A program made the position numbers and the translations under genes. The notes beneath the pieces are model-generated. The model was not told the DNA's origin. It made no database searches and was given only the letters and a program-made list of their open reading frames with translations. From the NCBI GenBank assembly GCA_965237905.1, contig OZ250172.1, positions 2,240,001 through 2,304,000 on the forward strand: DNA of 64,000 nt, in the 5' to 3' direction. Origin of the DNA: Nitrospinaceae bacterium. GTDB taxonomy: Bacteria; Nitrospinota; Nitrospinia; Nitrospinales; Nitrospinaceae. This document shows, piece by piece, positions 1,665 to 58,635 of this stretch (its first letter is position 1; every line of letters begins with the position of its first letter).

Positions 1665-2357
1665 TCAACGATAAACAGAATCTCCGAGGCGGTCATTGCG
1701 CACCTTCCACCAGCTGGTATCTTTGCTGTCCCAGGACCAGTAGATCCATTGTGCCTTGCCGCGTAAATTTTTCAGGTCCAAAACTCCCCACATCCGGCTG
1801 TCATGACTGTTTTCGCGGTTGTCTCCCATGACAAATATATGTTCTTCCGGGATGCGCAGAGGAGCCATGTTGTCCCTGGGGACCAGTGAAGACGGGGGTT
1901 CCGAGTGATGCGCATAGGGTTCTTTTAGCAATTTGTCGTTGATATAGACCCTTTGATTGATCACCTGAATGGTTTCACCCGGCAGGCCGACCACCCGCTT
2001 GATAAAATCTTTGTCCGGTTCCATGGGAAATTTGAAAACGACAATATTTCCACGTTCCGGAACGCTGGAAAAAAAATGATAGTCCGGAAACAGTTGGATA
2101 CTGGTAAACGGGATTTCGTTGGGAACATGGATGCTGTAGCTGAATTTGGAAACCAAAAGATGGTCCCCTATCAGCAAGGTTGGCTCCATCGACCCTGACG
2201 GAATTTTGAACGCCTGAATGATGAAGGTCCGAATCAGCAAGGCCAGGATCAGTGCAATGATCAGCGCTTCCGCGTATTCCCGGACAACGGTTTTCTGCGG
2301 TTTCCCGGCCTTCAGTACTTCTGCCGATTCTTCAGTATTTTCAGGTTTATTTGACAT
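1665..2357 (-). CDS. lepB: Signal peptidase I
   Basis: [10 protein letters not shown] (catalytic Ser), [10 protein letters not shown] (catalytic Lys), [11 protein letters not shown]; directly after lepA. Confidence 0.97.
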
Positions 2358-4149
2358 CCGTTCTCAGTACCGCCAGAAATGCTTCCTGCGGAATTTCCAC
2401 TTTGCCGATGAGTTTCATTTTCTTTTTGCCGGCTTTTTGTTTCTCCAGCAATTTTCGTTTTCGGGTGATGTCACCGCCGTAGCATTTGGCCAGCACGTTT
2501 TTACGGAGGGCTTTGACGGCCTCCTTGGCGATGACTTTACCGCCGACCGAGGCCTGGATGGCCACCTCGAACATTTGCCGGGGAATTTGCTCCTTGAGTT
2601 TTTTAACCAGCTCCCGACCCCGATGGTACGCTTTGTCTTTGTGAGAGATCATCGAAAGCGCGTCCACCAGCTCCCCATTGAACAGGATGTCCAACTTTAC
2701 CAGATTTGATTCCCGAAAATCTATAAAATCATAATCGAACGAAGCGTATCCTTTGGTCGAGGACTTGAGCTGGTCGTAAAAATCGAGAACGATTTCACTG
2801 AACGGCATATCGTATTGCAGGAGCACGGTTTTGGGGGTCAGGTATTCCATTTTGGTTTGAATGCCGCGGCGGTCACGCGTGAGGGACATGATGGTGCCCA
2901 CATATTCCTCCGGTACGATGATGGTTCCCGTCACGTACGGTTCCTCAATCCGGTCGGCCCGCGTTTGTCTGATCAGGTTCACCGGGTTGTCGATCATTTC
3001 CTCTTTCCCGTTTTCGTGAATCAGCCGGTAGATAACGGTGGGTGCCGTGGTTAAGAGTTCCACCCGGTATTCCCGCTCCAGCCGTTCGCGCACAATCTCC
3101 ATATGCAGGAGTCCCAGAAATCCGCAACGGAACCCGAATCCCAGCGCCGCCGAGGTTTCCGGTTCGTAAGTGAACGAGGAGTCGTTCAACCGGAGTTTCT
3201 TGAGCGCGTCGCGGAGCGGTTCGTAGTGGTCGCCCTGAATGGGATAGAGACCACTGAACACCATGGGTTTGACCTCCTTGTACCCTGTCAGCGGTTTTTC
3301 GCACGGACGGCCCACTTCGGTGATGGTATCGCCGATATGGGTCTGGTCGAGTTGCTTGATGCCGGCGATGATGTATCCCACCTCGCCCGCGCTCAATTGT
3401 TTGACCCGGCAGGGGGCGGGGGTAAAAGTGCCCAGCTCCTCCACCTCGAACTGATTGCCCGTCGCTATCATCCGTATGTTCATGCCCTCTGTGATCGTGC
3501 CATCCATCACCCGGGTCAGGGTGATCACGCCCCGGTAGGAGTCGTACCAGGAATCGAACAGCAGGCTTTTAACAGGATCTTTGGTCTTGCCCGATGGTGG
3601 AGGAATCAGGCGAACCACCGCTTCCAGGATTTCTTTGATGCCAATGCCCTCCTTGGCGCTGGCCAGAATCGCGTCCGACGAATCGATCTGCAAAACGTCC
3701 TCCAGTTGCTCCATCACCGCTTCCGGATTGGCGCTGGGCAGGTCGATTTTGTTGATGACGGGAAGGATATACAGATTGTGTTGCATCGCCAGGTTGACGT
3801 TGGCGATGGTTTGCGCCTGAATGCCCTGCGAAGCGTCGACCACCAATAGAACGCCCTCGCAGGCCGCCAGGCTCCGCGACACTTCGTAGGTGAAATCGAC
3901 ATGGCCGGGGGTATCGATCATGTTGAAGATGTAATTCTCTCCGTCATCCGCCTTATAGTGGAGGCGCACGGTCTGTGCCTTGATGGTGATGCCGCGCTCG
4001 CGTTCCAGGTCCATGCTGTCCAGAACCTGCTCCTTCATCTCTCTTTCCTGCAGGCCGCCGGTTTCGAGAATCAGTTTGTCCGCCAGCGTGGACTTGCCGT
4101 GGTCGATGTGGGCGATGATGGAAAAATTGCGTATGTTTTTTAATGGCAT
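2347..4149 (-). CDS. lepA: Elongation factor 4
   Basis: [27 protein letters not shown]-terminal [18 protein letters not shown]. Confidence 0.99.
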
Positions 4150-44143: not shown

Positions 44144-45190
44144 TTAACCGTGCAGAGCGTTGAACTGAATGCGGTGAATTCCGGACGTTCCGGAGGGAAA
44201 CGGGTCGCGCTGGCCATCGCGCTGGATCCCGCTGTATTGATCGGCGGCGCGGACGGCAACGGAATAGCGGCCACGTCGGGGCAATGCCATGGGAAAGGAC
44301 CAGAATACCCAACTGTACGGGGACAACGGTTTTTCCAGTTTGGCGAGGGACCAGCTCCGTTCGCCGTCGGTGCTTACCTGGACATATTGAATGCCCCGGT
44401 CCCCGGCGAAGGCAATCCCTCGCAGGATGGTTTTCGAGCCCCGCACCCGGGACCCGTTTTTGGGGAAGTCGATGCGTGAGATGATTTTCACTTTACCGTC
44501 GCGGGACCAGTTTCTTTTCTCCCAGTAGCCGGTATGGGTTTCATTGGACACTTCTATTTCACGGATCCATTTGACCTGCTTGATGCCGTACAGGCCGGGG
44601 ACCAGCAACCTCAGGGGGAAACCGTGTTCGCGCGGCAGGGGTTCGCCGTTCATGGTATGGGCCAGCAAAGCAGAACGGTGACGGCCCCGGCTCAGAGGGA
44701 TGCTGTCGTGGTAGCCGTCGGCCCCTTTAAAGATGAGCGTCTTGGTAAAAAAGTCCGGGTCGGCCTCGTCCAGTAACTCTCTCAGGGAAACCCCTTCCCA
44801 TTCGGCATTACCCAGGGCGTAACCGCCGACCGGGTTGCCGATACAGCTCAAGGTAATAATTCGCCGGACAGTGGGCCGTTTCCGGATTTGATCGAGGGAC
44901 AGGGTCAGAGGTTGGTCGACTTTCCCGGTAATTTTCAGACGCCAGGTTTCGGTATTCAGGGGTTTCGGAGGGCCGTGGATGTCTTCAACATAAAATTCAG
45001 AATTGGGAGTGATGGGCGTCACAGCACCTGCCGGCACGGTTGTCTTGAGTTGCATATCCGCGACAGGAGTAATCGAATAGGACTCCAGGGATTCTCCAAA
45101 AGAAAAACGGGCCGCCAGGGCCCGTAAAGGATAAAACACCAGGGATAAAACGCTAAACAACAGGCAACGCAGAAACTGGTAACGCGTCAT
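44144..45190 (-). CDS. Sulfite-oxidase-family molybdopterin oxidoreductase
   Basis: TLSCIGN, NAEWEGV, HGFPLRLLVPGLYGIKQVKW, C-terminal dimerisation domain (GIAFAG..V.VSTDG). Confidence 0.9.
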   Translation of the reverse strand: MTRYQFLRCLLFSVLSLVFYPLRALAARFSFGESLESYSITPVADMQLKTTVPAGAVTPITPNSEFYVEDIHGPPKPLNTETWRLKITGKVDQPLTLSLDQIRKRPTVRRIITLSCIGNPVGGYALGNAEWEGVSLRELLDEADPDFFTKTLIFKGADGYHDSIPLSRGRHRSALLAHTMNGEPLPREHGFPLRLLVPGLYGIKQVKWIREIEVSNETHTGYWEKRNWSRDGKVKIISRIDFPKNGSRVRGSKTILRGIAFAGDRGIQYVQVSTDGERSWSLAKLEKPLSPYSWVFWSFPMALPRRGRYSVAVRAADQYSGIQRDGQRDPFPSGTSGIHRIQFNALHG

Positions 45191-45211
45191 TGCTGTTCAC
45201 CCAAGACCGGG

Positions 45212-46201
45212 TTAGTCGCAACAGGAATCATCGTTCGAGGGTGTTTCATCGGGATCGATGATATTGAACATCTCCCGATAGGGATGAGATTCGAGCAAGC
45301 TTGCGAAATCCTCATCCACTTCCACGGGAACGCCCATGGGAAACTGGATGTTCTGAAAAGTGGCCGCATGCAAGGGGCCGGCATAAATCGCCTGCACCTT
45401 TCCGGGACAACAGGATTGTTCAACGGGTACGGGTTTGTAGGCGGTCAGGATATAGGAATAGAACCGGATGCCCTCGACGGTTTTCCACAAGTAATCCTTT
45501 TTCAGGGTGAAGCCGTGGAAATCGGTCTGTTTCGAATAGTTAATGAACTCATCGAGAGTCAGCGCGCCGGAGACGCATTCGCCCCACAATTCGCGGTTGT
45601 TGCGCATTTCCTGCGGAACCGGTTTGTCCGAAATGATATCGGCGATGACGAATCGGCCGCCGGGTTTCAGGATTCGGTGAATTTCGCGGAAGACTTCTTC
45701 CTTGTCGGTGGACAGATTGATAACGCAGTTGGAAGTGACCACATCCACGGACTGATCGTCCATGGGAATGGCTTCCAGAAAACCGTGTTTGAATTCGATA
45801 TTGTTGTACCCCAGGTTTTTGGAAACCTGTTCGGCGTTTTTGCGGGCATTGGCGAGCATATTCTCCGTCATATCCACGCCGGTGACCTTGCCCTTCGGTC
45901 CCACAATTTTTGCGGCGATGAAACAGTCGATGCCGCCGCCGGAGCCGAGGTCTATCATGGATTCGCCGGGAGCGATGTTGGCCCGGTTCACGGGACTGCC
46001 GCATCCGTAGGAAATGTCCATCACCTCGGAAGGAATATGCGAAAGGTCACCGGGATCGTAATTGACCGGGCAACACAAACTTTCCTGGGTAGCGACCGCC
46101 GCCTTGGAATAATAATCGCGGACGTCGTTGCGGGTGACTTCAGAACACGTTTCGGTTTCAGTACCGGCTCTCCTGTCATTCATCTGAACATTCCTTTCCA
46201 A
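45212..46201 (-). CDS. arsM: Arsenite methyltransferase-like protein
   Basis: LCCP, SYGCGSP, DLGSGGGIDC, SNCVINL, WGECVSGAL (conserved ArsM cysteines). Confidence 0.8.
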   Translation of the reverse strand: MERNVQMNDRRAGTETETCSEVTRNDVRDYYSKAAVATQESLCCPVNYDPGDLSHIPSEVMDISYGCGSPVNRANIAPGESMIDLGSGGGIDCFIAAKIVGPKGKVTGVDMTENMLANARKNAEQVSKNLGYNNIEFKHGFLEAIPMDDQSVDVVTSNCVINLSTDKEEVFREIHRILKPGGRFVIADIISDKPVPQEMRNNRELWGECVSGALTLDEFINYSKQTDFHGFTLKKDYLWKTVEGIRFYSYILTAYKPVPVEQSCCPGKVQAIYAGPLHAATFQNIQFPMGVPVEVDEDFASLLESHPYREMFNIIDPDETPSNDDSCCD

Positions 46202-46214
46202 TTATATAAATTCA

Positions 46215-46520
46215 TCAACTTGATTGTTTAAGGGAATCTTTGATTTTGGTTTTAGCTTGCTCGCTGAGGACCTCCTGCTGTTGCGTCGGTGCTTCCTCCC
46301 TTCCCAGTTTCCGGGCGAGTGCGCGGATGGTTTCCAGTTGTTTTTTATAAAAGCAACAAACGTCGCAAATGGCAAGATGAAATTTGAGCCGCAGGCGTTT
46401 GCCTAAAGGTAGGGAGCGATCCATCGTCTCCGAAATGAGGGGCGTGGTGTCCCTACACGTCATTTGGAACCATTGGAGCAGCCGCCCCATGAATTTTACC
46501 ATTATAGAGTTTGATTTCAT
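46215..46520 (-). CDS. zf-HC2 anti-sigma factor
   Basis: MTC....LIS....HLAICDVC; start overlaps the sigma stop (TAATG). Confidence 0.88.
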   Translation of the reverse strand: MKSNSIMVKFMGRLLQWFQMTCRDTTPLISETMDRSLPLGKRLRLKFHLAICDVCCFYKKQLETIRALARKLGREEAPTQQQEVLSEQAKTKIKDSLKQSS

Positions 46521-47095
46521 TACTGCTTCGTATCCCAATGACTCGTTTCCAGGCATTTACGGAGTTGGTTCCGGGCCCGGTGTAAAATCACCCACAAATT
46601 GGTCGGGTTGATATCCATTTCCTTACAAATTTCCTCGGAGGCCAACCCTTCTATCTCCTTTAAAACAAATATGTTACGGAATTTATCTGACAATTTGTCC
46701 AGGCATTGAGCCATGGCTTCCACAAGTTGCTTGTTTTCAGCCGCTTTGTGGGGATCAGTATCCCAGTTTTTGGGAGCGTTTTCCCAATGTCCGTCTTGGT
46801 GGTAAGCGTTTTCCAAGGGATCGGATCCGTCGTCCGGTGTCAGCTCAAACGTTCTCCGGGTTTTCAATTCCCTGAAATGGTCCAGGATTTTATGTTTCAA
46901 AATGCCGAACAACCAGCTTTTTTCCGTAGATCTTCCCTGGAAAGAGCCTTTGGCCTGCAGAGCAGCGAGCAGGGTCACTTGTACGATCTCCTCGGCGGCA
47001 TCAGGATTTTTCACCCGGACCAGAGTGTATCGATACAGCATATCACCGTATCGGTCCACCCACAAATCGCTATTCAGAGTTTCCGGCATTTTCAC
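46520..47095 (-). CDS. ECF RNA polymerase sigma-70 factor
   Basis: AEEIVQVTL, SWLFGILKHKILD, region 4 EICKEMDINPTNLWVILHRAR. Confidence 0.93.
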   Translation of the reverse strand: MKMPETLNSDLWVDRYGDMLYRYTLVRVKNPDAAEEIVQVTLLAALQAKGSFQGRSTEKSWLFGILKHKILDHFRELKTRRTFELTPDDGSDPLENAYHQDGHWENAPKNWDTDPHKAAENKQLVEAMAQCLDKLSDKFRNIFVLKEIEGLASEEICKEMDINPTNLWVILHRARNQLRKCLETSHWDTKQ

Positions 47096-47122
47096 GATAA
47101 TCCCACTCTAAGATTGCTGTTG

Positions 47123-47152
47123 TTGACTTCCACCTCTCGAAGCTCATATACT
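47123..47152 (+). promoter_or_regulatory. Putative leaderless promoter of the ArsR gene
   Basis: TTGACT-18-TATACT, 7 nt before ATG 47160; no SD. Confidence 0.5.
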
Positions 47153-47159
47153 GGCTTCC

Positions 47160-47558
47160 ATGAACCAGACACCCGATGCAGGGCAATGCGCCAAAATACT
47201 AAAATCACTGGCCGATGAGTCGCGCTTGAAAATCGTCCGCCTTTTGCTGAACGGAGAAAAAAGCGTTTCCGAAGTGGTCCGCTCCCTCCGCATGGCTCAG
47301 CCACAGGTCTCGCATCACCTTTCGATTTTGAGGGGTTCCGGGTTGGTGGATACCCGAAGAGAGGGTAAAAAAATCATCAACTTCATTGATCCGGAAGTTA
47401 AATATATTCTAAAAAAGAAAGAAATCGGTCTGGATCTGGGATGTTGTTCCATCCAATTTGACGAAACTCCGAACCCCCCCCACTTCCTGAAGTTGTCAAG
47501 CACCACCCCTCCTCAAGATATAGCTTCGGCATTATACCTATTTCGACGATCCAATTAA
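47160..47558 (+). CDS. ArsR/SmtB-family regulator
   Basis: LKSLADESRLKI, QPQVSHHLSILR..GLV..RREG; C-terminal GCC. Confidence 0.92.
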   Translation: MNQTPDAGQCAKILKSLADESRLKIVRLLLNGEKSVSEVVRSLRMAQPQVSHHLSILRGSGLVDTRREGKKIINFIDPEVKYILKKKEIGLDLGCCSIQFDETPNPPHFLKLSSTTPPQDIASALYLFRRSN

Positions 47559-50500
47559 AAGGACTTATTTGAAGGGGTTTGTGCCAAGTGGGAGGGGTAC
47601 AGATTTTTATAAATTCCGTGGTTTCGAAACACGTGTTTGACGTAGCCCCGGGTTTCGGGATAGGGGATGGATTCGACAAAGACGTCCATATCCTTGATAC
47701 TGCGGAATCGTTTGAGCCAGGCCTGCAACACTTTTGGCCCGGCGTTGTAGGTGATCAGAATGTAAACGCCATTGCCTTTGTGTTTTCGGGTGAGATTGCT
47801 CAGATACCGGACGCCCAGGCGGATGTTGATATCCGGCTCGAACAGGAAATCCGTGTCAAAGGTTTGGTTCGGATGGGTCCATGCGAACAGGCGTTTGCCA
47901 GTCTTGGGCATGATCTGCATCAGACCCCGCGCTCCGGCGGGTGACAGGGACCTCGTGTTGTACATGCTTTCCTGTCGAATCAGGCTTTTCACCAACCAGG
48001 GGTCCAGATCGTACTTCCCAGCTTCAATTTTTACATACTCCGAGTAGACCGAAGGATAAAAGTTGATCCAAAATTGCCGGGGCAGTTCCTTCTCGCCATG
48101 TTTGGTTTTGAAATCCTTGAACAATTGAAGGACTTGCAGTGAGTCGGCATAGGCTTGCGCGCGATTGTACCAATGAGATAACCACATGACACCGGAAAGA
48201 TTTTTTCGAATGGATCTCCCCAATCTCAACAACTCGATCCGGGCCTGGGTGAATTCTCTCAGCTCGATCAGCTCGGATGCGCGTTTGAAATGAAATCTTT
48301 CTCTTGCAGACAAGCGACGCCCCGGTTGAGTAAAGGAGTGTTTCTTCTTATAGGAGGCTTTTCGGAAAGGCGAGAAGCCTTGCAAGGGTGTGGGGAATAC
48401 CTCATCCAAATGATTGATGGCCTCCAAGCCGTAATAGGTGTAGGGAAATCGATGGGCCAAATCCTTAAACAGGATCTGAGCTGCCGATGTTTTGTCCAGT
48501 TTTTCGGCCGCCTTGGCCATCCAGAATAAGTTTTTATCCGTGAGGTTGCCTTTAGGAGATTGGTCGAGGTTGTCTTTGAATTGATCGAAAGCTTTCTGCC
48601 ACTGTCCGGCTTTAAAATGAATCCACCCGCTTCTCCATGCCGCCATTTCCCCCTGCATTTCACGACCGAATTTCCGCGCCAGGATTCGGTACGTTCCGAG
48701 AGCTTTTGCGTGCTTTTGGATATCCTCATAAATGCGCCCCTGATAAAACAGGGGCTGTGGAACCCATCTGGAATTCGGGGATGTTTTTATAAGGGTGTTG
48801 ATGTGGCTCAAGGCTCCGGAGGGATTGCCCAGATTCCACAGGTTCCCCGCTATGAGAAAATGCGCTTCGCTGGTTCGGCGGTGTTTGGGATACTTTCTTA
48901 AAAACTGCCGCAGAACAATATTGGCTTTGGACCGTTTGCGAAGGCCTTTGTGAGCTTCCGCCAAATAAAAGTAAAGGTCAGCGGGGAGAGGTTTGCCCCT
49001 CAATTTTTTTTGGATCGCCTTGATCTCCTGGATCACCGGGGTGTAGTCGACACTATTCAACAACGCGCGCATGCGTCGTCGGGTTTCTCTTAGAGTAAGA
49101 GGGCGGGGAGTCAGGGAAAGTTCTTTGACCATTCGATCCATTTGAACTTTGGCCTGAAAGCGTGCCGCAACTTTGGGGTGACGAATATAAAGCTTACGGT
49201 ACAGATTGTATACTTGGTCATGATCCCTCAAAAGTTTGGACAGCTTGACTTGGTGGTTGATGATATCAGGAACCAGCACTTTCCATTTCCGGGTGGAGAA
49301 CTTCCGGGAGATCAGTTTTTCCGTCTGTCTCAATTCTTTAATAGCCTCTTGAAAATTTCCCAGTTTCTCATGCGCATCGGCGCGAAGCAGGCGGACCTCA
49401 GGAATCAAGAGGGTGAGCGGGTGCTTTTTTAAAAGACGGGTAGTTTGTTTCAACACCGCTTGCCATTCTTCTTCGGCCTGGTAGATGCGGGCCAGCTCAA
49501 GCCGGATGTAATCCCCCATTTCGGGATATTCCCAGAGAACATTTTTCAGTTGGGTTTTTGCCTGGTCATAATTCTCTTGATGGGCGTAAATTTTCCCGAG
49601 CATAAAGCGCGTGCGTTTTTGTGTTTTCGGGTCCACCCCGGTGAGAAGGAGTTTTTCAAACAGGCCCTGGGCCTCATCCCACCGGCCGGAATGATATTCG
49701 TGAACTCCGGATTGAAACCATCCTTCGTTGGAGGCAGAAGCAGGCGCGGGACCCCACAGGAAAAGCCAGCCGCACAACAGGAGTGTCGCTCCGAGCGGTA
49801 CCTGTGCCAGAACTTTTTCCTTGATCTGTTGCGCTGTTTCGCCGGGATCGAGGAGCAGAGTGATCCGGGCGGCCATTTTTCTGAACCAAGTCAATTGACG
49901 TTTGGCGAAATGGCGGGTGTCCCGTTTGATCTCATAGACCGCACGGTCCAGCGGCAGGTCGCTTTCCAGATGTCGCGCCATTTGGGAATAGCCGATGCTT
50001 TGAAACGGTTTCAATCGAGAGCCGTAACCCTTGTTCAATAAGGATTCGACTTCCTCTTTCAATCCTGCGTCCATCATGATATCCACCCGGCGCTCGATTT
50101 GGTCGTAGAGATGTTGACGATCGGTTTCCAGTACGAACAGGTACGATTCAAATTCGTAATCGGCTGAGGCCTCCTCGGCATGAAATTCGGAGAACTTCCG
50201 GCCCGTTTCACGGTGGACCGATAACGCGCGTTCGATTCGCGATGGATCGGTCGGCTGAATTTTCCCGGCATAGTCCGGATCGACACCTGCCAACTCTGCG
50301 TGCATCTTCTGCGTTCCTTTCTGCTGGATTTCATCCTGGACCTGGCGACGGATCTCTGGAGATACGGAAATGGCGCAATCTCGGTCTTCCAGCAGGGTTT
50401 TCAAATAGAGACCGGTGCCTCCGACCATGATCGGAATCTTGTTCCGGTTTCGGATCTCCCGGATTTGCGCCAATGCCCGTTCCTTAAACTCAAACGCTGT

Positions 50501-50713
50501 GAACTCCTCATCGGGTTCGAGAATATCAATCAGGTGATGGGTGACGCGCTCCCGCTCAGCCTGGGAGGGCTTGGCTGTCCCGATATCGAAATGCTTGTAG
50601 ACCTGCATGGAGTCGGCGCTGATAATTTCAGTGCCGAGATGCTCCGCCAGGGCTAGCGCAGTTTTACTTTTACCTGAGGCGGTGGGACCGCTCAGGATAA
50701 TTAAAGGAAGCAT
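47555..50713 (-). CDS. miaA: tRNA dimethylallyltransferase fused in frame to a TPR/Slt lytic transglycosylase
   Basis: GPTASGKS, DSMQVY, GGTGLY, AKRQLTWF; then a hydrophobic segment; then TPRs and IRQES, GARGLMQIMP, YNAGP, ETRGYV. No stop between domains. Confidence 0.9.
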   Translation of the reverse strand: MLPLIILSGPTASGKSKTALALAEHLGTEIISADSMQVYKHFDIGTAKPSQAERERVTHHLIDILEPDEEFTAFEFKERALAQIREIRNRNKIPIMVGGTGLYLKTLLEDRDCAISVSPEIRRQVQDEIQQKGTQKMHAELAGVDPDYAGKIQPTDPSRIERALSVHRETGRKFSEFHAEEASADYEFESYLFVLETDRQHLYDQIERRVDIMMDAGLKEEVESLLNKGYGSRLKPFQSIGYSQMARHLESDLPLDRAVYEIKRDTRHFAKRQLTWFRKMAARITLLLDPGETAQQIKEKVLAQVPLGATLLLCGWLFLWGPAPASASNEGWFQSGVHEYHSGRWDEAQGLFEKLLLTGVDPKTQKRTRFMLGKIYAHQENYDQAKTQLKNVLWEYPEMGDYIRLELARIYQAEEEWQAVLKQTTRLLKKHPLTLLIPEVRLLRADAHEKLGNFQEAIKELRQTEKLISRKFSTRKWKVLVPDIINHQVKLSKLLRDHDQVYNLYRKLYIRHPKVAARFQAKVQMDRMVKELSLTPRPLTLRETRRRMRALLNSVDYTPVIQEIKAIQKKLRGKPLPADLYFYLAEAHKGLRKRSKANIVLRQFLRKYPKHRRTSEAHFLIAGNLWNLGNPSGALSHINTLIKTSPNSRWVPQPLFYQGRIYEDIQKHAKALGTYRILARKFGREMQGEMAAWRSGWIHFKAGQWQKAFDQFKDNLDQSPKGNLTDKNLFWMAKAAEKLDKTSAAQILFKDLAHRFPYTYYGLEAINHLDEVFPTPLQGFSPFRKASYKKKHSFTQPGRRLSARERFHFKRASELIELREFTQARIELLRLGRSIRKNLSGVMWLSHWYNRAQAYADSLQVLQLFKDFKTKHGEKELPRQFWINFYPSVYSEYVKIEAGKYDLDPWLVKSLIRQESMYNTRSLSPAGARGLMQIMPKTGKRLFAWTHPNQTFDTDFLFEPDINIRLGVRYLSNLTRKHKGNGVYILITYNAGPKVLQAWLKRFRSIKDMDVFVESIPYPETRGYVKHVFRNHGIYKNLYPSHLAQTPSNKSF

Positions 50714-51410
50714 AAATTTCCTGCATGGTTTGTGTGTAACTGCCATCGGGATGATAGATGGTCAATGTTTGCTCTAAAGGTGTTTGAGGAGCCTCCCCCT
50801 TGACCGCCTCCACGAGGCAGATTTTCGGAGCGACCTCTTCATGACCGAACACCCGGACAAACCGGGTCGGGTTCAACTGAACCTTCCGGAGTTGTTTCAT
50901 TACCTCTTCCAGCCGGTAGAAAGGATAGGCCAGTGCGATTTTGCCTCCCGGTTTTAACAGGGGGGCACCTACCGCGGTTACAGTCTCCAGCGTCAGGGCC
51001 AGCTCGTGCCGCGCCAGGGCTTTTTCCCGGCAGGGATTTATTTTACCGCTGTTCACTTTCCGGTAAGGCGGATTGCTCAGAATCCAATCGAACGATTCAG
51101 GTTCCAAATCGCTGGCGACGGCCTGGAAATCTCCTTCCACCACCCGGATGCGATGGGACCAACCGTTGGTTGCTACATTATCCATCGCGCTTTGGTACAG
51201 GGATTTTTGAATTTCGACGGCGGTGATTTCCAGATCCGCCTGGCGGCTCATCAGGAGCAGGGGAATGACGCCGCACCCGGTTCCGATATCCAGAATTCTG
51301 GACCCTCCGGCCGGTCGGACCCAGTGGGCGAGCAGAAACGGCTCCACCGAATACCGGTAGCCCTCTGGATTTTGACTGATAGTGATTTGCTCGGCGATCT
51401 GGTTTTCCAT
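50670..51410 (-). CDS. tRNA1(Val) A37 N6-methyltransferase-like (TrmN6/YfiC family)
   Basis: GYRYSVE..LLA, LDIGTGCG, SNPPY, ARHE. Confidence 0.88.
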   Translation of the reverse strand: MENQIAEQITISQNPEGYRYSVEPFLLAHWVRPAGGSRILDIGTGCGVIPLLLMSRQADLEITAVEIQKSLYQSAMDNVATNGWSHRIRVVEGDFQAVASDLEPESFDWILSNPPYRKVNSGKINPCREKALARHELALTLETVTAVGAPLLKPGGKIALAYPFYRLEEVMKQLRKVQLNPTRFVRVFGHEEVAPKICLVEAVKGEAPQTPLEQTLTIYHPDGSYTQTMQEIYASFNYPERSHRLR

Positions 51411-57156: not shown

Positions 57157-58635
57157 TCAAAAACAAGGCATCATTGATATTAACCATAGTCTCAACTGGG
57201 CTATGGAAGAAACTGAATCGGTGGACAGAGACGGATCATTAACCATCACAGTACCGATCGCCGTACCATTGCTTACAAAAAGATCCCTTCCGGGGGAGCC
57301 GTCCTCGGCCGCGAAAAACAGCGTGCCGTTTAGGTTAATTAAAGATTTGGGATTAGAAGATCTCCCGCACGCAGCAACATTTTTCACCATCTTTGTGCCG
57401 GATGACGTGCCGTTGCTTTTCCAAAGTTCCCTTCCGTTGATACCATCGTCAGCTGAGAAAAACAATGTACCATTGACATTAGTTAAATAGTAAGGATTGG
57501 AAGAGCCGTCCTTCCAAATATCCTTCACCAATACGGTGCCGGCTGTCATACCGTCGCTTTTCCACAGTTCGATTCCGTGGGTGCCGTTGTCGGCTGTGAA
57601 AAAAAGTGTGCCGTTGACATTGGTAAGATCTTGAGGCTTCGATGATTTGCTCCCAGTATTGATATCCTTCACCAATACGGTACCGGCGGGTGTGCCGTCG
57701 GTTTTCCACAGCTCTTCTCCGTGAGTGCCATCATTGGCTCTGAAAAACAATGTGCCGTTAACGTGGGTCGTGTTGCCGCTTATGATGATATCTGCAATCA
57801 TCATAGTACCGTCCTCGGTACCGTCGCTTTTCCAAAGTTCCCTTCCGTTGATACCGTCGTCAGCCATGAAAAGCAGTGTGCCGTTGGCATTGTTATACCC
57901 GATAGGAATGGAAGTGTCAGGACCAACCCGAATATCCTTCACTATTACCGTGCCCGCCGCGGTGCCGTCACTTTTCCACAGCTCGATTCCGTGGTCAAAG
58001 TCATAGGCGGCAAAAAACAAGGTGCCGTTTATGTTGATAAGAGGTCCAGGATTTGAATAGCCGTCCGTCAGAATATCCTTCACCAATACAGTACCGGCTG
58101 ATGTGCCATCGCTTTTCCAGAGTTCCCTTCCGTTGACACCGTCGTCAGCTGTAAAAAACAGTGTGCCGTTGACGTTGGTAAGATCTTTAGGTTTCGAGGA
58201 TTTGCTCCCAGTATTGATATCCTTCACCATCACCGTACCAGCCGCAGTGCCATCGCTTTTCCAGAGTTCTTTTCCGTGGATACCGTCGTCAGCTATGAAA
58301 AACAGAGTGCCGCTGACGTCAGTCAAATATTGAGGACTGGAAGAATTAACACCCGCACCGATATCCTTCACCATCACGGTACCGGCCGCGGTGCCATCGC
58401 TTTTCCAGAGTTCCCTTCCGTAGAGCTCGTGGTTGGCGCGGAAGTAAGCCACCGGGCCAATGGTCATTATTTCAGCTGGCTTGGAATGAGGTATAGCGGC
58501 GGTAATCTGCTGATTGATGGCCTTGATGAGTTGGGGTTGGGCGGCTAATACGGGCAGATGGATAAAAGTAATCAGGATAACGATCCAAAGGACCGCCCAG
58601 GAGGGTTTTGTCTGATTCCGTTTAAGTTGATTCAT
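57157..58635 (-). CDS. Secreted ELWxxDGT-repeat protein (3' end probably frameshifted)
   Basis: Signal peptide; eight ELWK(S/T)(D/N)G repeats plus one degenerate repeat. Confidence 0.9.
   Translation of the reverse strand: MNQLKRNQTKPSWAVLWIVILITFIHLPVLAAQPQLIKAINQQITAAIPHSKPAEIMTIGPVAYFRANHELYGRELWKSDGTAAGTVMVKDIGAGVNSSSPQYLTDVSGTLFFIADDGIHGKELWKSDGTAAGTVMVKDINTGSKSSKPKDLTNVNGTLFFTADDGVNGRELWKSDGTSAGTVLVKDILTDGYSNPGPLININGTLFFAAYDFDHGIELWKSDGTAAGTVIVKDIRVGPDTSIPIGYNNANGTLLFMADDGINGRELWKSDGTEDGTMMIADIIISGNTTHVNGTLFFRANDGTHGEELWKTDGTPAGTVLVKDINTGSKSSKPQDLTNVNGTLFFTADNGTHGIELWKSDGMTAGTVLVKDIWKDGSSNPYYLTNVNGTLFFSADDGINGRELWKSNGTSSGTKMVKNVAACGRSSNPKSLINLNGTLFFAAEDGSPGRDLFVSNGTAIGTVMVNDPSLSTDSVSSIAQLRLWLISMMPCF

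Follow-up and report, generated by a model that had tools for sequence, protein, structure and literature searches.

Bradyrhizobium japonicum FbcH, the cytochrome b/c1 precursor, is reported (Thony-Meyer et al., 1991) to be encoded by one gene that yields two proteins by way of an internal signal-like segment. A second group of precedents consists of type II proteins with a cytoplasmic N-terminal part, including RsiV of B. subtilis and C. difficile, and FecR and RseA of E. coli. Signal peptidase I cuts RsiV at an internal A-x-A or V-x-A, after which a site-2 protease, RasP, acts (PMC9044953), and RseP degrades remnant signal peptides and cuts type II stubs once the outer domain has been removed (PMC8144685). 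Here we describe a gene in a stretch of 64,000 nucleotides from a Nitrospinaceae bacterium (contig OZ250172.1, positions 2,240,001 to 2,304,000; hereafter the window) whose product joins MiaA, a tRNA-modifying enzyme, to a Slt-type lytic transglycosylase through a predicted internal export signal.

A miaA-slt fusion and its distribution

We found a single frame free of stops on the minus strand of the window between positions 47555 and 50746. The miaA-slt fusion open reading frame within it (47555..50713, minus strand) encodes 1052 amino acids (~122.6 kDa). We used the ATG at 50713 as the working start because in 5/30 related loci an in-frame stop cuts off the ATG further upstream and because all 78 full-length relatives start with an ATG at the position of 50713; residue numbers throughout refer to this 1052-amino acid form. 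Pfam placed an IPPT domain at residues 37-279 (E = 1.8e-85), then tetratricopeptide repeat (TPR) families, then an SLT domain at 893-1005 (E = 1.7e-22). An AlphaFold2 model built from a 78-sequence alignment (mean predicted local distance difference test score, pLDDT, 86) contained a MiaA domain, then a stretch of low confidence (307-328) and, starting at 329, a helical solenoid that continues into the catalytic domain. The first-pass annotation, made from the letters alone, had described one uninterrupted reading frame of about 1050 amino acids holding MiaA and a TPR/Slt enzyme, and the Pfam and NCBIfam results agree with it.

We searched all 120 genomes of the phylum, 102 from the order of the window and 18 from other orders of the class. 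The junction between the two halves was covered in 94 loci from 93 genomes, representing 22 genera and four families. Reading frames combining IPPT and SLT domains, for which a search of related genomes had been proposed, were thus found widely: the halves were fused in frame in 94/94 loci and split in none. Full-length loci (78) encoded 1017-1060 amino acids, every one of them with one open frame across both domains, and the fusion was kept down to ~38% overall identity. Named homologues were labelled Nitrospinaceae, Nitrospina, Nitrospinales or Nitrospinota, and from these labels we infer that the fusion-bearing order is Nitrospinales. The nine of 102 in-order genomes outside the junction count comprised five with no match, one (G032) with a match at paralogue level only, and three (G048, G074, G104) in which the locus fell at contig ends; in G104, two contig ends overlap in frame across the signal. 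One genome (G054) contributed two full fused copies (L046 and L068), present in a single bin with 5% contamination, which could reflect either a duplication or a mixed bin.

It had been left open whether relatives would show a stop codon and an independent start between miaA and slt, making the fusion an assembly error or a recent, strain-specific read-through. Separate genes do exist, only outside the order, and the fusion marks the order as a whole. Since relatives carry the same in-frame fusion, an error of assembly is excluded. Contigs from sequencing runs X1 and X2 matched the stretch without any difference, and they are possibly the source of this DNA itself. A contig from another run (X4) fits both flanks of 49545-49808 and not the intervening 262 nucleotides (the signal and the first TPR), and probably comes from a diverged relative. 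Stops flagged within the raw genome matches were absent from the junction once the loci had been cut out; those printed sat upstream of the true start. One genome that is 59% complete (G094) has a frameshift, which sits inside MiaA and not at the junction.

Outside the order, we examined 15 of the 18 genomes (the others being G044, which was left out, and G116 and G119, which gave no match), and miaA ended in a stop codon in all 15. In ten of them (families f7-f9), slt follows miaA on the same strand, its start mostly overlapping or lying just behind the miaA stop; one of the outgroup genomes (G108) has an insert of ~770 nucleotides between the two genes. In the other five (families f5 and f6), miaA and slt are on different contigs with other neighbours. 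The outgroup Slt proteins carry N-terminal signal-like segments. In FastTree trees made with up to two genomes per genus and rooted on f5 by choice, the 32 fused representatives grouped as a single clade with either half (MiaA, support 0.89; Slt, 0.66). The simplest history would be one in which unlinked genes came to form an operon and then fused a single time at the base of the order, a sequence of events that hinges on the chosen root. No independent MiaA-Slt fusion appeared among the best 150 matches when a profile of the fusion was compared with 1.84 billion representatives (19 two-domain proteins, all with the same junction, 17 with MiaA only and 114 with Slt only), a comparison that would miss a very divergent fusion scoring below 337 bits. 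On these comparisons, the fusion is real and old.

The MiaA and Slt halves

The MiaA domain is complete (residues 1-306; 49796..50713, minus strand), as judged by profile, alignment and model, with the P-loop at G9-S16, D34, R209 and a KRQxTWF motif. It scored 303 bits against the NCBIfam miaA model (TIGR00174; curated cut-off 148.65), covering model positions 1-282 of 288. T11, K15, D34 and Q273 are invariant in 78/78 full-length loci, and R209 is present in 77/78, with one gap. T11, K15, D34 and R209 align with the same residues in solved MiaA chains, and we take them to be the P-loop Thr and Lys, the catalytic Asp and the Arg that act in MiaA catalysis.

About 25 residues following MiaA had been read as a linker. 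They are instead the last strand and helix of MiaA itself (residues 280-305; 49799..49876, minus strand), as indicated by alignment, conservation and model. The sequence alignment with E. coli MiaA (2zm5) extends as far as residue 302, and the model has a strand at 283-288 and a helix at 294-304 (pLDDT ~85); the one part of this region modelled with low confidence is 307-328. In a Foldseek comparison with E. coli MiaA, the model had a template modelling (TM) score of 0.85 on the target. The alignment to 302 and the modelled strand and helix together indicate that the export signal is joined directly to the last helix of MiaA, with no spacer.

The fusion is the only miaA found in a search of the genome to which it belongs (G000). 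In related genomes there was no separate full miaA copy, the sole extra being the second fused copy in G054. The genome also contains miaB, and 9/9 listed tRNAs for codons starting with U have A36-A37-A38. From the single miaA, the presence of miaB and these tRNAs, it follows that the fused MiaA must work in the cytoplasm. Both catalytic domains (MiaA and SLT) had far less nonsynonymous than synonymous change (pN 0.05-0.13 versus pS 0.45-0.71) in 7/7 genera tested. Both the MiaA half and the Slt half look functional. Table S10 of PMC13768755 lists a 3105-nucleotide gene, labelled only 'tRNA dimethylallyltransferase', behind a TrmN-type gene, with transcript values in 6/8 Black Sea samples; its size and neighbours suggest that it is homologous to the fusion.

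The Slt half begins with the TPR/alpha-superhelix of an Slt70-type enzyme (residue 328 to ~870, with a flexible loop at 772-792; 48104..49732, minus strand), recognized by Pfam, model and Foldseek, and ends with the SLT catalytic domain (~871-1040; 47594..48103, minus strand), recognized by Pfam, alignment and conservation. The catalytic domain has GLMQ and YNAG motifs and scored 79.6 bits against PF01464 (cut-off 21.3). E915 (47969-47971), S916, G930, M932, Q933, Y989, N990 and G992 are kept in 78/78 loci. Residues 886-1036 align with 449-599 of 1qsa, placing E915 at position 478, which we take to be the catalytic Glu. The model matched Slt70 with a TM-score of 0.53 over 729 columns, and from this similar fold the Slt half is predicted to work like Slt70. 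Scores were below cut-off for both the Slt70 orthologue model (NF008631; 95.5 bits, cut-off 536) and the model for the flagellar-assembly lytic transglycosylase BB0259 (NF047373; 135.8 bits, cut-off 234), so by that test the protein belongs to a TPR-rich Slt-like subfamily and is not an Slt70 orthologue. The same genome has a second TPR/Slt paralogue (contig C1, 164895-167318, minus strand; 808 amino acids) that is unfused, has an ordinary N-terminal signal peptide, and adjoins the fused clade in the Slt tree.

The junction and the probable processing of the product

The first-pass annotation had noticed a hydrophobic stretch ending in an AxA site between MiaA and the TPRs, and the stretch has the layout of a Sec-type signal (49733..49798, minus strand): Pro306, a hydrophobic core at ~307-320 and a c-region at 321-327. 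V305-A327 (49801-49733) gave the highest hydropathy windows of the whole protein. A signal peptidase I site is predicted at A327/S328 or A325/S326 (49730..49741, minus strand) from motif, matrix and model. Both candidates fit A-x-A; the matrix prefers 325, and the first TPR helix of the model begins at 329. The Lys and Arg residues of the last MiaA helix supply the positive n-side of the signal. Pro306 is conserved in 73/78 loci, and position 300 (K300) is K or R in 75/78. Identity between genera is lowest in the junction (22%; MiaA, 57%; TPRs, 34%; SLT, 58%). Despite this drift the junctions share one design, in which a basic residue in the last MiaA helix and a Pro precede the hydrophobic core, and a short polar segment with small residues at its end comes after it. 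Stand-alone Slt proteins (e.g., P0136-P0139 and P0162) enter the fusion profile at ~305-315 through their N-terminal signal peptides. By homology, then, the internal segment is the ancestral Slt signal peptide, retained by descent.

To score cleavage sites, we used home-made rules. A strict site had Ala at -1 and a small residue at -3, located 2-11 residues behind the core. Strict A-x-A-type sites were present in 80/94 junctions versus 270/1073 (25%) internal membrane helices. The corresponding counts were 15/66 for single internal hydrophobic segments, 143/247 for N-terminal non-lipobox segments of G000, and 7/15 for outgroup Slt signals. In 1000 local shuffles of the junctions, the number of strict sites was 38.8 ± 4.3 (maximum 52). 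The majority of loci had a strict site in 18/22 genera. A cleavage matrix trained only on N-terminal segments of G000 gave junctions a median score of 7.5, compared with 5.9 for N-terminal segments held out of the training and 0.3-0.4 for internal helices, and ranked the fusion first of 66 reading frames with a single internal segment. The n-side was net positive in 86/94 junctions and more positive than the c-side in 89/94, and a hydrophobic core was present in 94/94. A lipobox Cys at the end of the core, as expected for a signal peptidase II signal, was found in 0/94 junctions.

We think that the product is probably a two-compartment precursor, which Sec would insert N-in/C-out and from which signal peptidase I would release soluble Slt; MiaA would then stay tethered or be set free by RseP. 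Comparison of fused and unfused loci shows that the miaA stop and the adjacent slt start were lost in the ancestor of the order, leaving the Slt signal peptide behind the last helix of MiaA. Translation would produce the MiaA part first, on the cytoplasmic side. Next, the internal signal would engage Sec in the N-in/C-out orientation, as suggested by its charge bias and descent and with RodZ as a precedent, and the 725-residue TPR-Slt part would be threaded into the periplasm. The conserved motif points to cleavage by signal peptidase I after A-x-A (A327 or A325), which would yield a soluble periplasmic Slt of ~85 kDa. MiaA (~37 kDa), carrying the signal stub, would stay on the inner face of the membrane or, following precedent, be freed by RseP; this is the weakest step. 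Each half would do its usual job, in one-to-one output from a single start. The genome contains two signal peptidase I genes and RseP.

Several observations weigh against this precursor. Median KD19 hydrophobicity was 2.03 for junctions, 2.05 for membrane helices and 1.94 for N-terminal segments, values so close that a cleaved signal cannot be told from an anchor by hydrophobicity. The strict motif was absent from 14/94 junctions, including 6/10 in genus g20 (matrix median -0.5) and 3/5 in genus g9. A relaxed site rule was passed by 94/94 junctions but also by 70% of membrane helices. The scoring is our own, its N-terminal training class mixes signals and anchors, and related genomes are not independent. 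The A-x-A motif could be an inherited remnant.

The first-pass annotation had offered two options, a trans-membrane protein or a polyprotein cut by signal peptidase I, and the evidence favours the second over a permanent trans-membrane protein. An uncleaved bitopic type II protein, with MiaA inside, Slt outside, a permanent tie between them, and an A-x-A that is a relic or poorly used, is unlikely in our estimate while still deserving to be taken seriously. Such a topology is made in bacteria, as PMC9360617 indicates for RodZ, a SecA target whose transmembrane segment is far from the N-terminus. In many members the uncharged stretch could span a membrane (median length, 21 residues), its hydrophobicity equals that of true helices, and Ala at -1 is mostly absent in g20. 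However, in several members only 13-16 residues are uncharged, only a few residues separate the segment from the first TPR helix, an arrangement shared with secreted stand-alone Slt, and the -3/-1 pattern outlasts heavy turnover of neighbouring residues in 18/22 genera. In the g20 loci (e.g., L061, L115-L118, L126 and L131), the c-region mostly ends in V/T-M/I-G and scores at background; g20 is possibly a lineage that has Gly at -1 or lacks cleavage.

A second alternative is a dual-start gene, in which an internal in-frame start would give a normal pre-Slt and the full-length product would serve mainly as MiaA. We regard this as quite improbable. The absence of an obvious Shine-Dalgarno (SD) sequence and start codon before the hydrophobic stretch, noted at first pass, extends to the order as a lack of any conserved internal start, with g9 as the exception. 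In the window, the nearest Met before the stretch is M280 (49876), and one TTG lies inside the hydrophobic core. There was no ATG, GTG or TTG from codon +3 after TWF to the core in 34/94 loci, and 14/94 had none even when +2 was counted. A start codon together with an SD match occurred in 12/94 (13%) junctions versus 211/1404 (15%) background windows. An ATG is present at +2 in 57/94 loci, which fits a dual start, but this Met is inside the MiaA fold and was never accompanied by a 4-nucleotide SD match; the SD test itself is weak, being passed by only 36/78 true starts. A TTG start at one recurrent Leu was rejected as a candidate for lack of enrichment (14 observed versus 10.9 ± 3.0 expected, of 67). 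A promoter scan, which was uninformative, showed no minus-strand promoter near the junction. In favour of a dual start, genus g9 (L063, L064, L073, L074 and L075) is one in which 5/5 loci have an in-frame ATG at +18 after TWF behind a 4-6 nucleotide AGGA-type SD-like word. This ATG would give a textbook signal peptide, and synonymous change is lower in the junction stretch of this genus (pS 0.43 versus ~0.62). Members of g9 may have reacquired an independent start for Slt without giving up the fusion. Even with a second start, MiaA would still be made only as a fusion, so that the internal signal would still need handling.

The fusion had also been proposed to link i6A37 modification to cell-wall turnover. 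No result supports this. The two genes are neighbours even in sister orders, where the stop of one often overlaps the start of the other, so the fusion may have done no more than make permanent a co-expression that was there before. Regulated processing, in which the state of the envelope would determine cleavage or release by RseP, set MiaA activity and couple tRNA modification to wall turnover, is very improbable. Its architecture is like that of RsiV and FecR, which are cut in two regulated steps, and there is no re-split among 94 loci from 22 genera. Against it, the segment has no sensor domain or conserved motif beyond P306, and once overlapping genes have fused, undoing the fusion takes both a new stop and a new start, a difficulty that accounts for its persistence even if it brings no benefit. 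Its origin probably has an unremarkable explanation: the gene overlap turned into a fusion, and the product functioned since the signal could still be recognized. A controlled two-step release, with signal peptidase I freeing Slt and RseP freeing MiaA such that i6A37/ms2i6A37 on tRNAs for U-starting codons tracks wall-hydrolase export or envelope state, is a long shot. If true, it would tie peptidoglycan turnover directly and physically to decoding in the principal nitrite oxidisers of the sea, and would exemplify a class of two-compartment polyproteins in bacteria that has been overlooked.

There is a negligible chance that the locus represents an assembly error, a recent read-through, or a programmed frameshift giving free MiaA: fusion in 94/94 loci down to ~38% identity refutes the first two, and although slippery heptamers occur near the junction in 32/94 loci, they are scattered (at most 6 at one position), for which reason a conserved frameshift site was rejected, and both catalytic domains have a pN far lower than their pS in 7/7 genera.

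Genomic setting and comparison with known systems

A TrmN-like methyltransferase gene (50670..51410, minus strand) overlaps the start of miaA by 44 nucleotides; its best NCBIfam match, below cut-off, is tRNA A37-N6 methyltransferase. The overlap couples two probable position-37 tRNA enzymes. The TrmN-like gene is upstream in 77/78 full-length loci, and several outgroup loci also have it ahead of miaA. Downstream, genes for an ArsR regulator, an extracytoplasmic function (ECF) sigma factor with a small partner gene, an ArsM-like methyltransferase and a sulfite-oxidase-family protein (44144-47558) lie tail-to-tail with the fusion. In most relatives, slt is followed instead by another gene, of ~320 amino acids. 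In most of the outgroup loci L078-L097, slt is followed by a similar gene of ~450-580 amino acids, amidohydrolase-like by reading only, which had no match within the fused loci or G000. Elsewhere in the window, a lepA-lepB pair (1665-2357 and 2347-4149, minus strand) holds one of the genome's two signal peptidase I genes, and a gene at 57157-58635 (minus strand) encodes a 492-amino acid secreted protein built of ELWKSDGT-type repeat units.

We found no description of a MiaA-Slt fusion in the literature within our view, which excluded most subscription journals and bioRxiv supplements, so that a passing mention is possible, and no match in the small supplementary files of two metaproteome papers. 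Bacterial genes are assumed to serve one compartment each, and annotation tools seek signal peptides at N-termini only; as a result, databases label this 1,050-residue protein just 'MiaA' and the cell-wall hydrolase is missed. The fusion is a clean marker for an order of marine nitrite-oxidising bacteria in which cultured species exist, and the unfused ancestral state is still visible in sister orders. It also lets one ask, in nature and across an order, whether an internal signal preceded by a 306-residue enzyme can be a routine substrate for Sec and signal peptidase I.

Each half resembles known enzymes. The likeness to E. coli MiaA (2zm5/3foz; TIGR00174, PF01715) extends over the whole fold, including the last strand and helix, and includes the P-loop, D34 and R209. 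Known MiaA, however, is a free protein of ~310 amino acids, whereas the fused MiaA runs into an export signal and a 725-amino acid enzyme predicted to be periplasmic. The Slt half shares an alpha-superhelix followed by an SLT domain with Slt70-type enzymes (E. coli 1qsa/1qte, P. aeruginosa Slt 5ohu and Neisseria LtgA); unlike them, it has no N-terminal signal and no start codon of its own.

As is reported for FbcH, one bacterial gene would yield two proteins by way of an internal signal-like segment. The locus has the single reading frame and the internal signal, and no conserved internal start overall, g9 possibly having one. FbcH joins two subunits of one membrane complex; MiaA-Slt joins enzymes of unrelated pathways that belong to different compartments. 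RsiV, FecR and RseA are regulators in which cleavage destroys or activates a signalling part, whereas the products of MiaA-Slt would both be housekeeping enzymes. The parts of this system are already known, as is internal signal processing in bacteria (FbcH and RsiV), and the MiaA-Slt fusion that combines these parts is real and order-wide.

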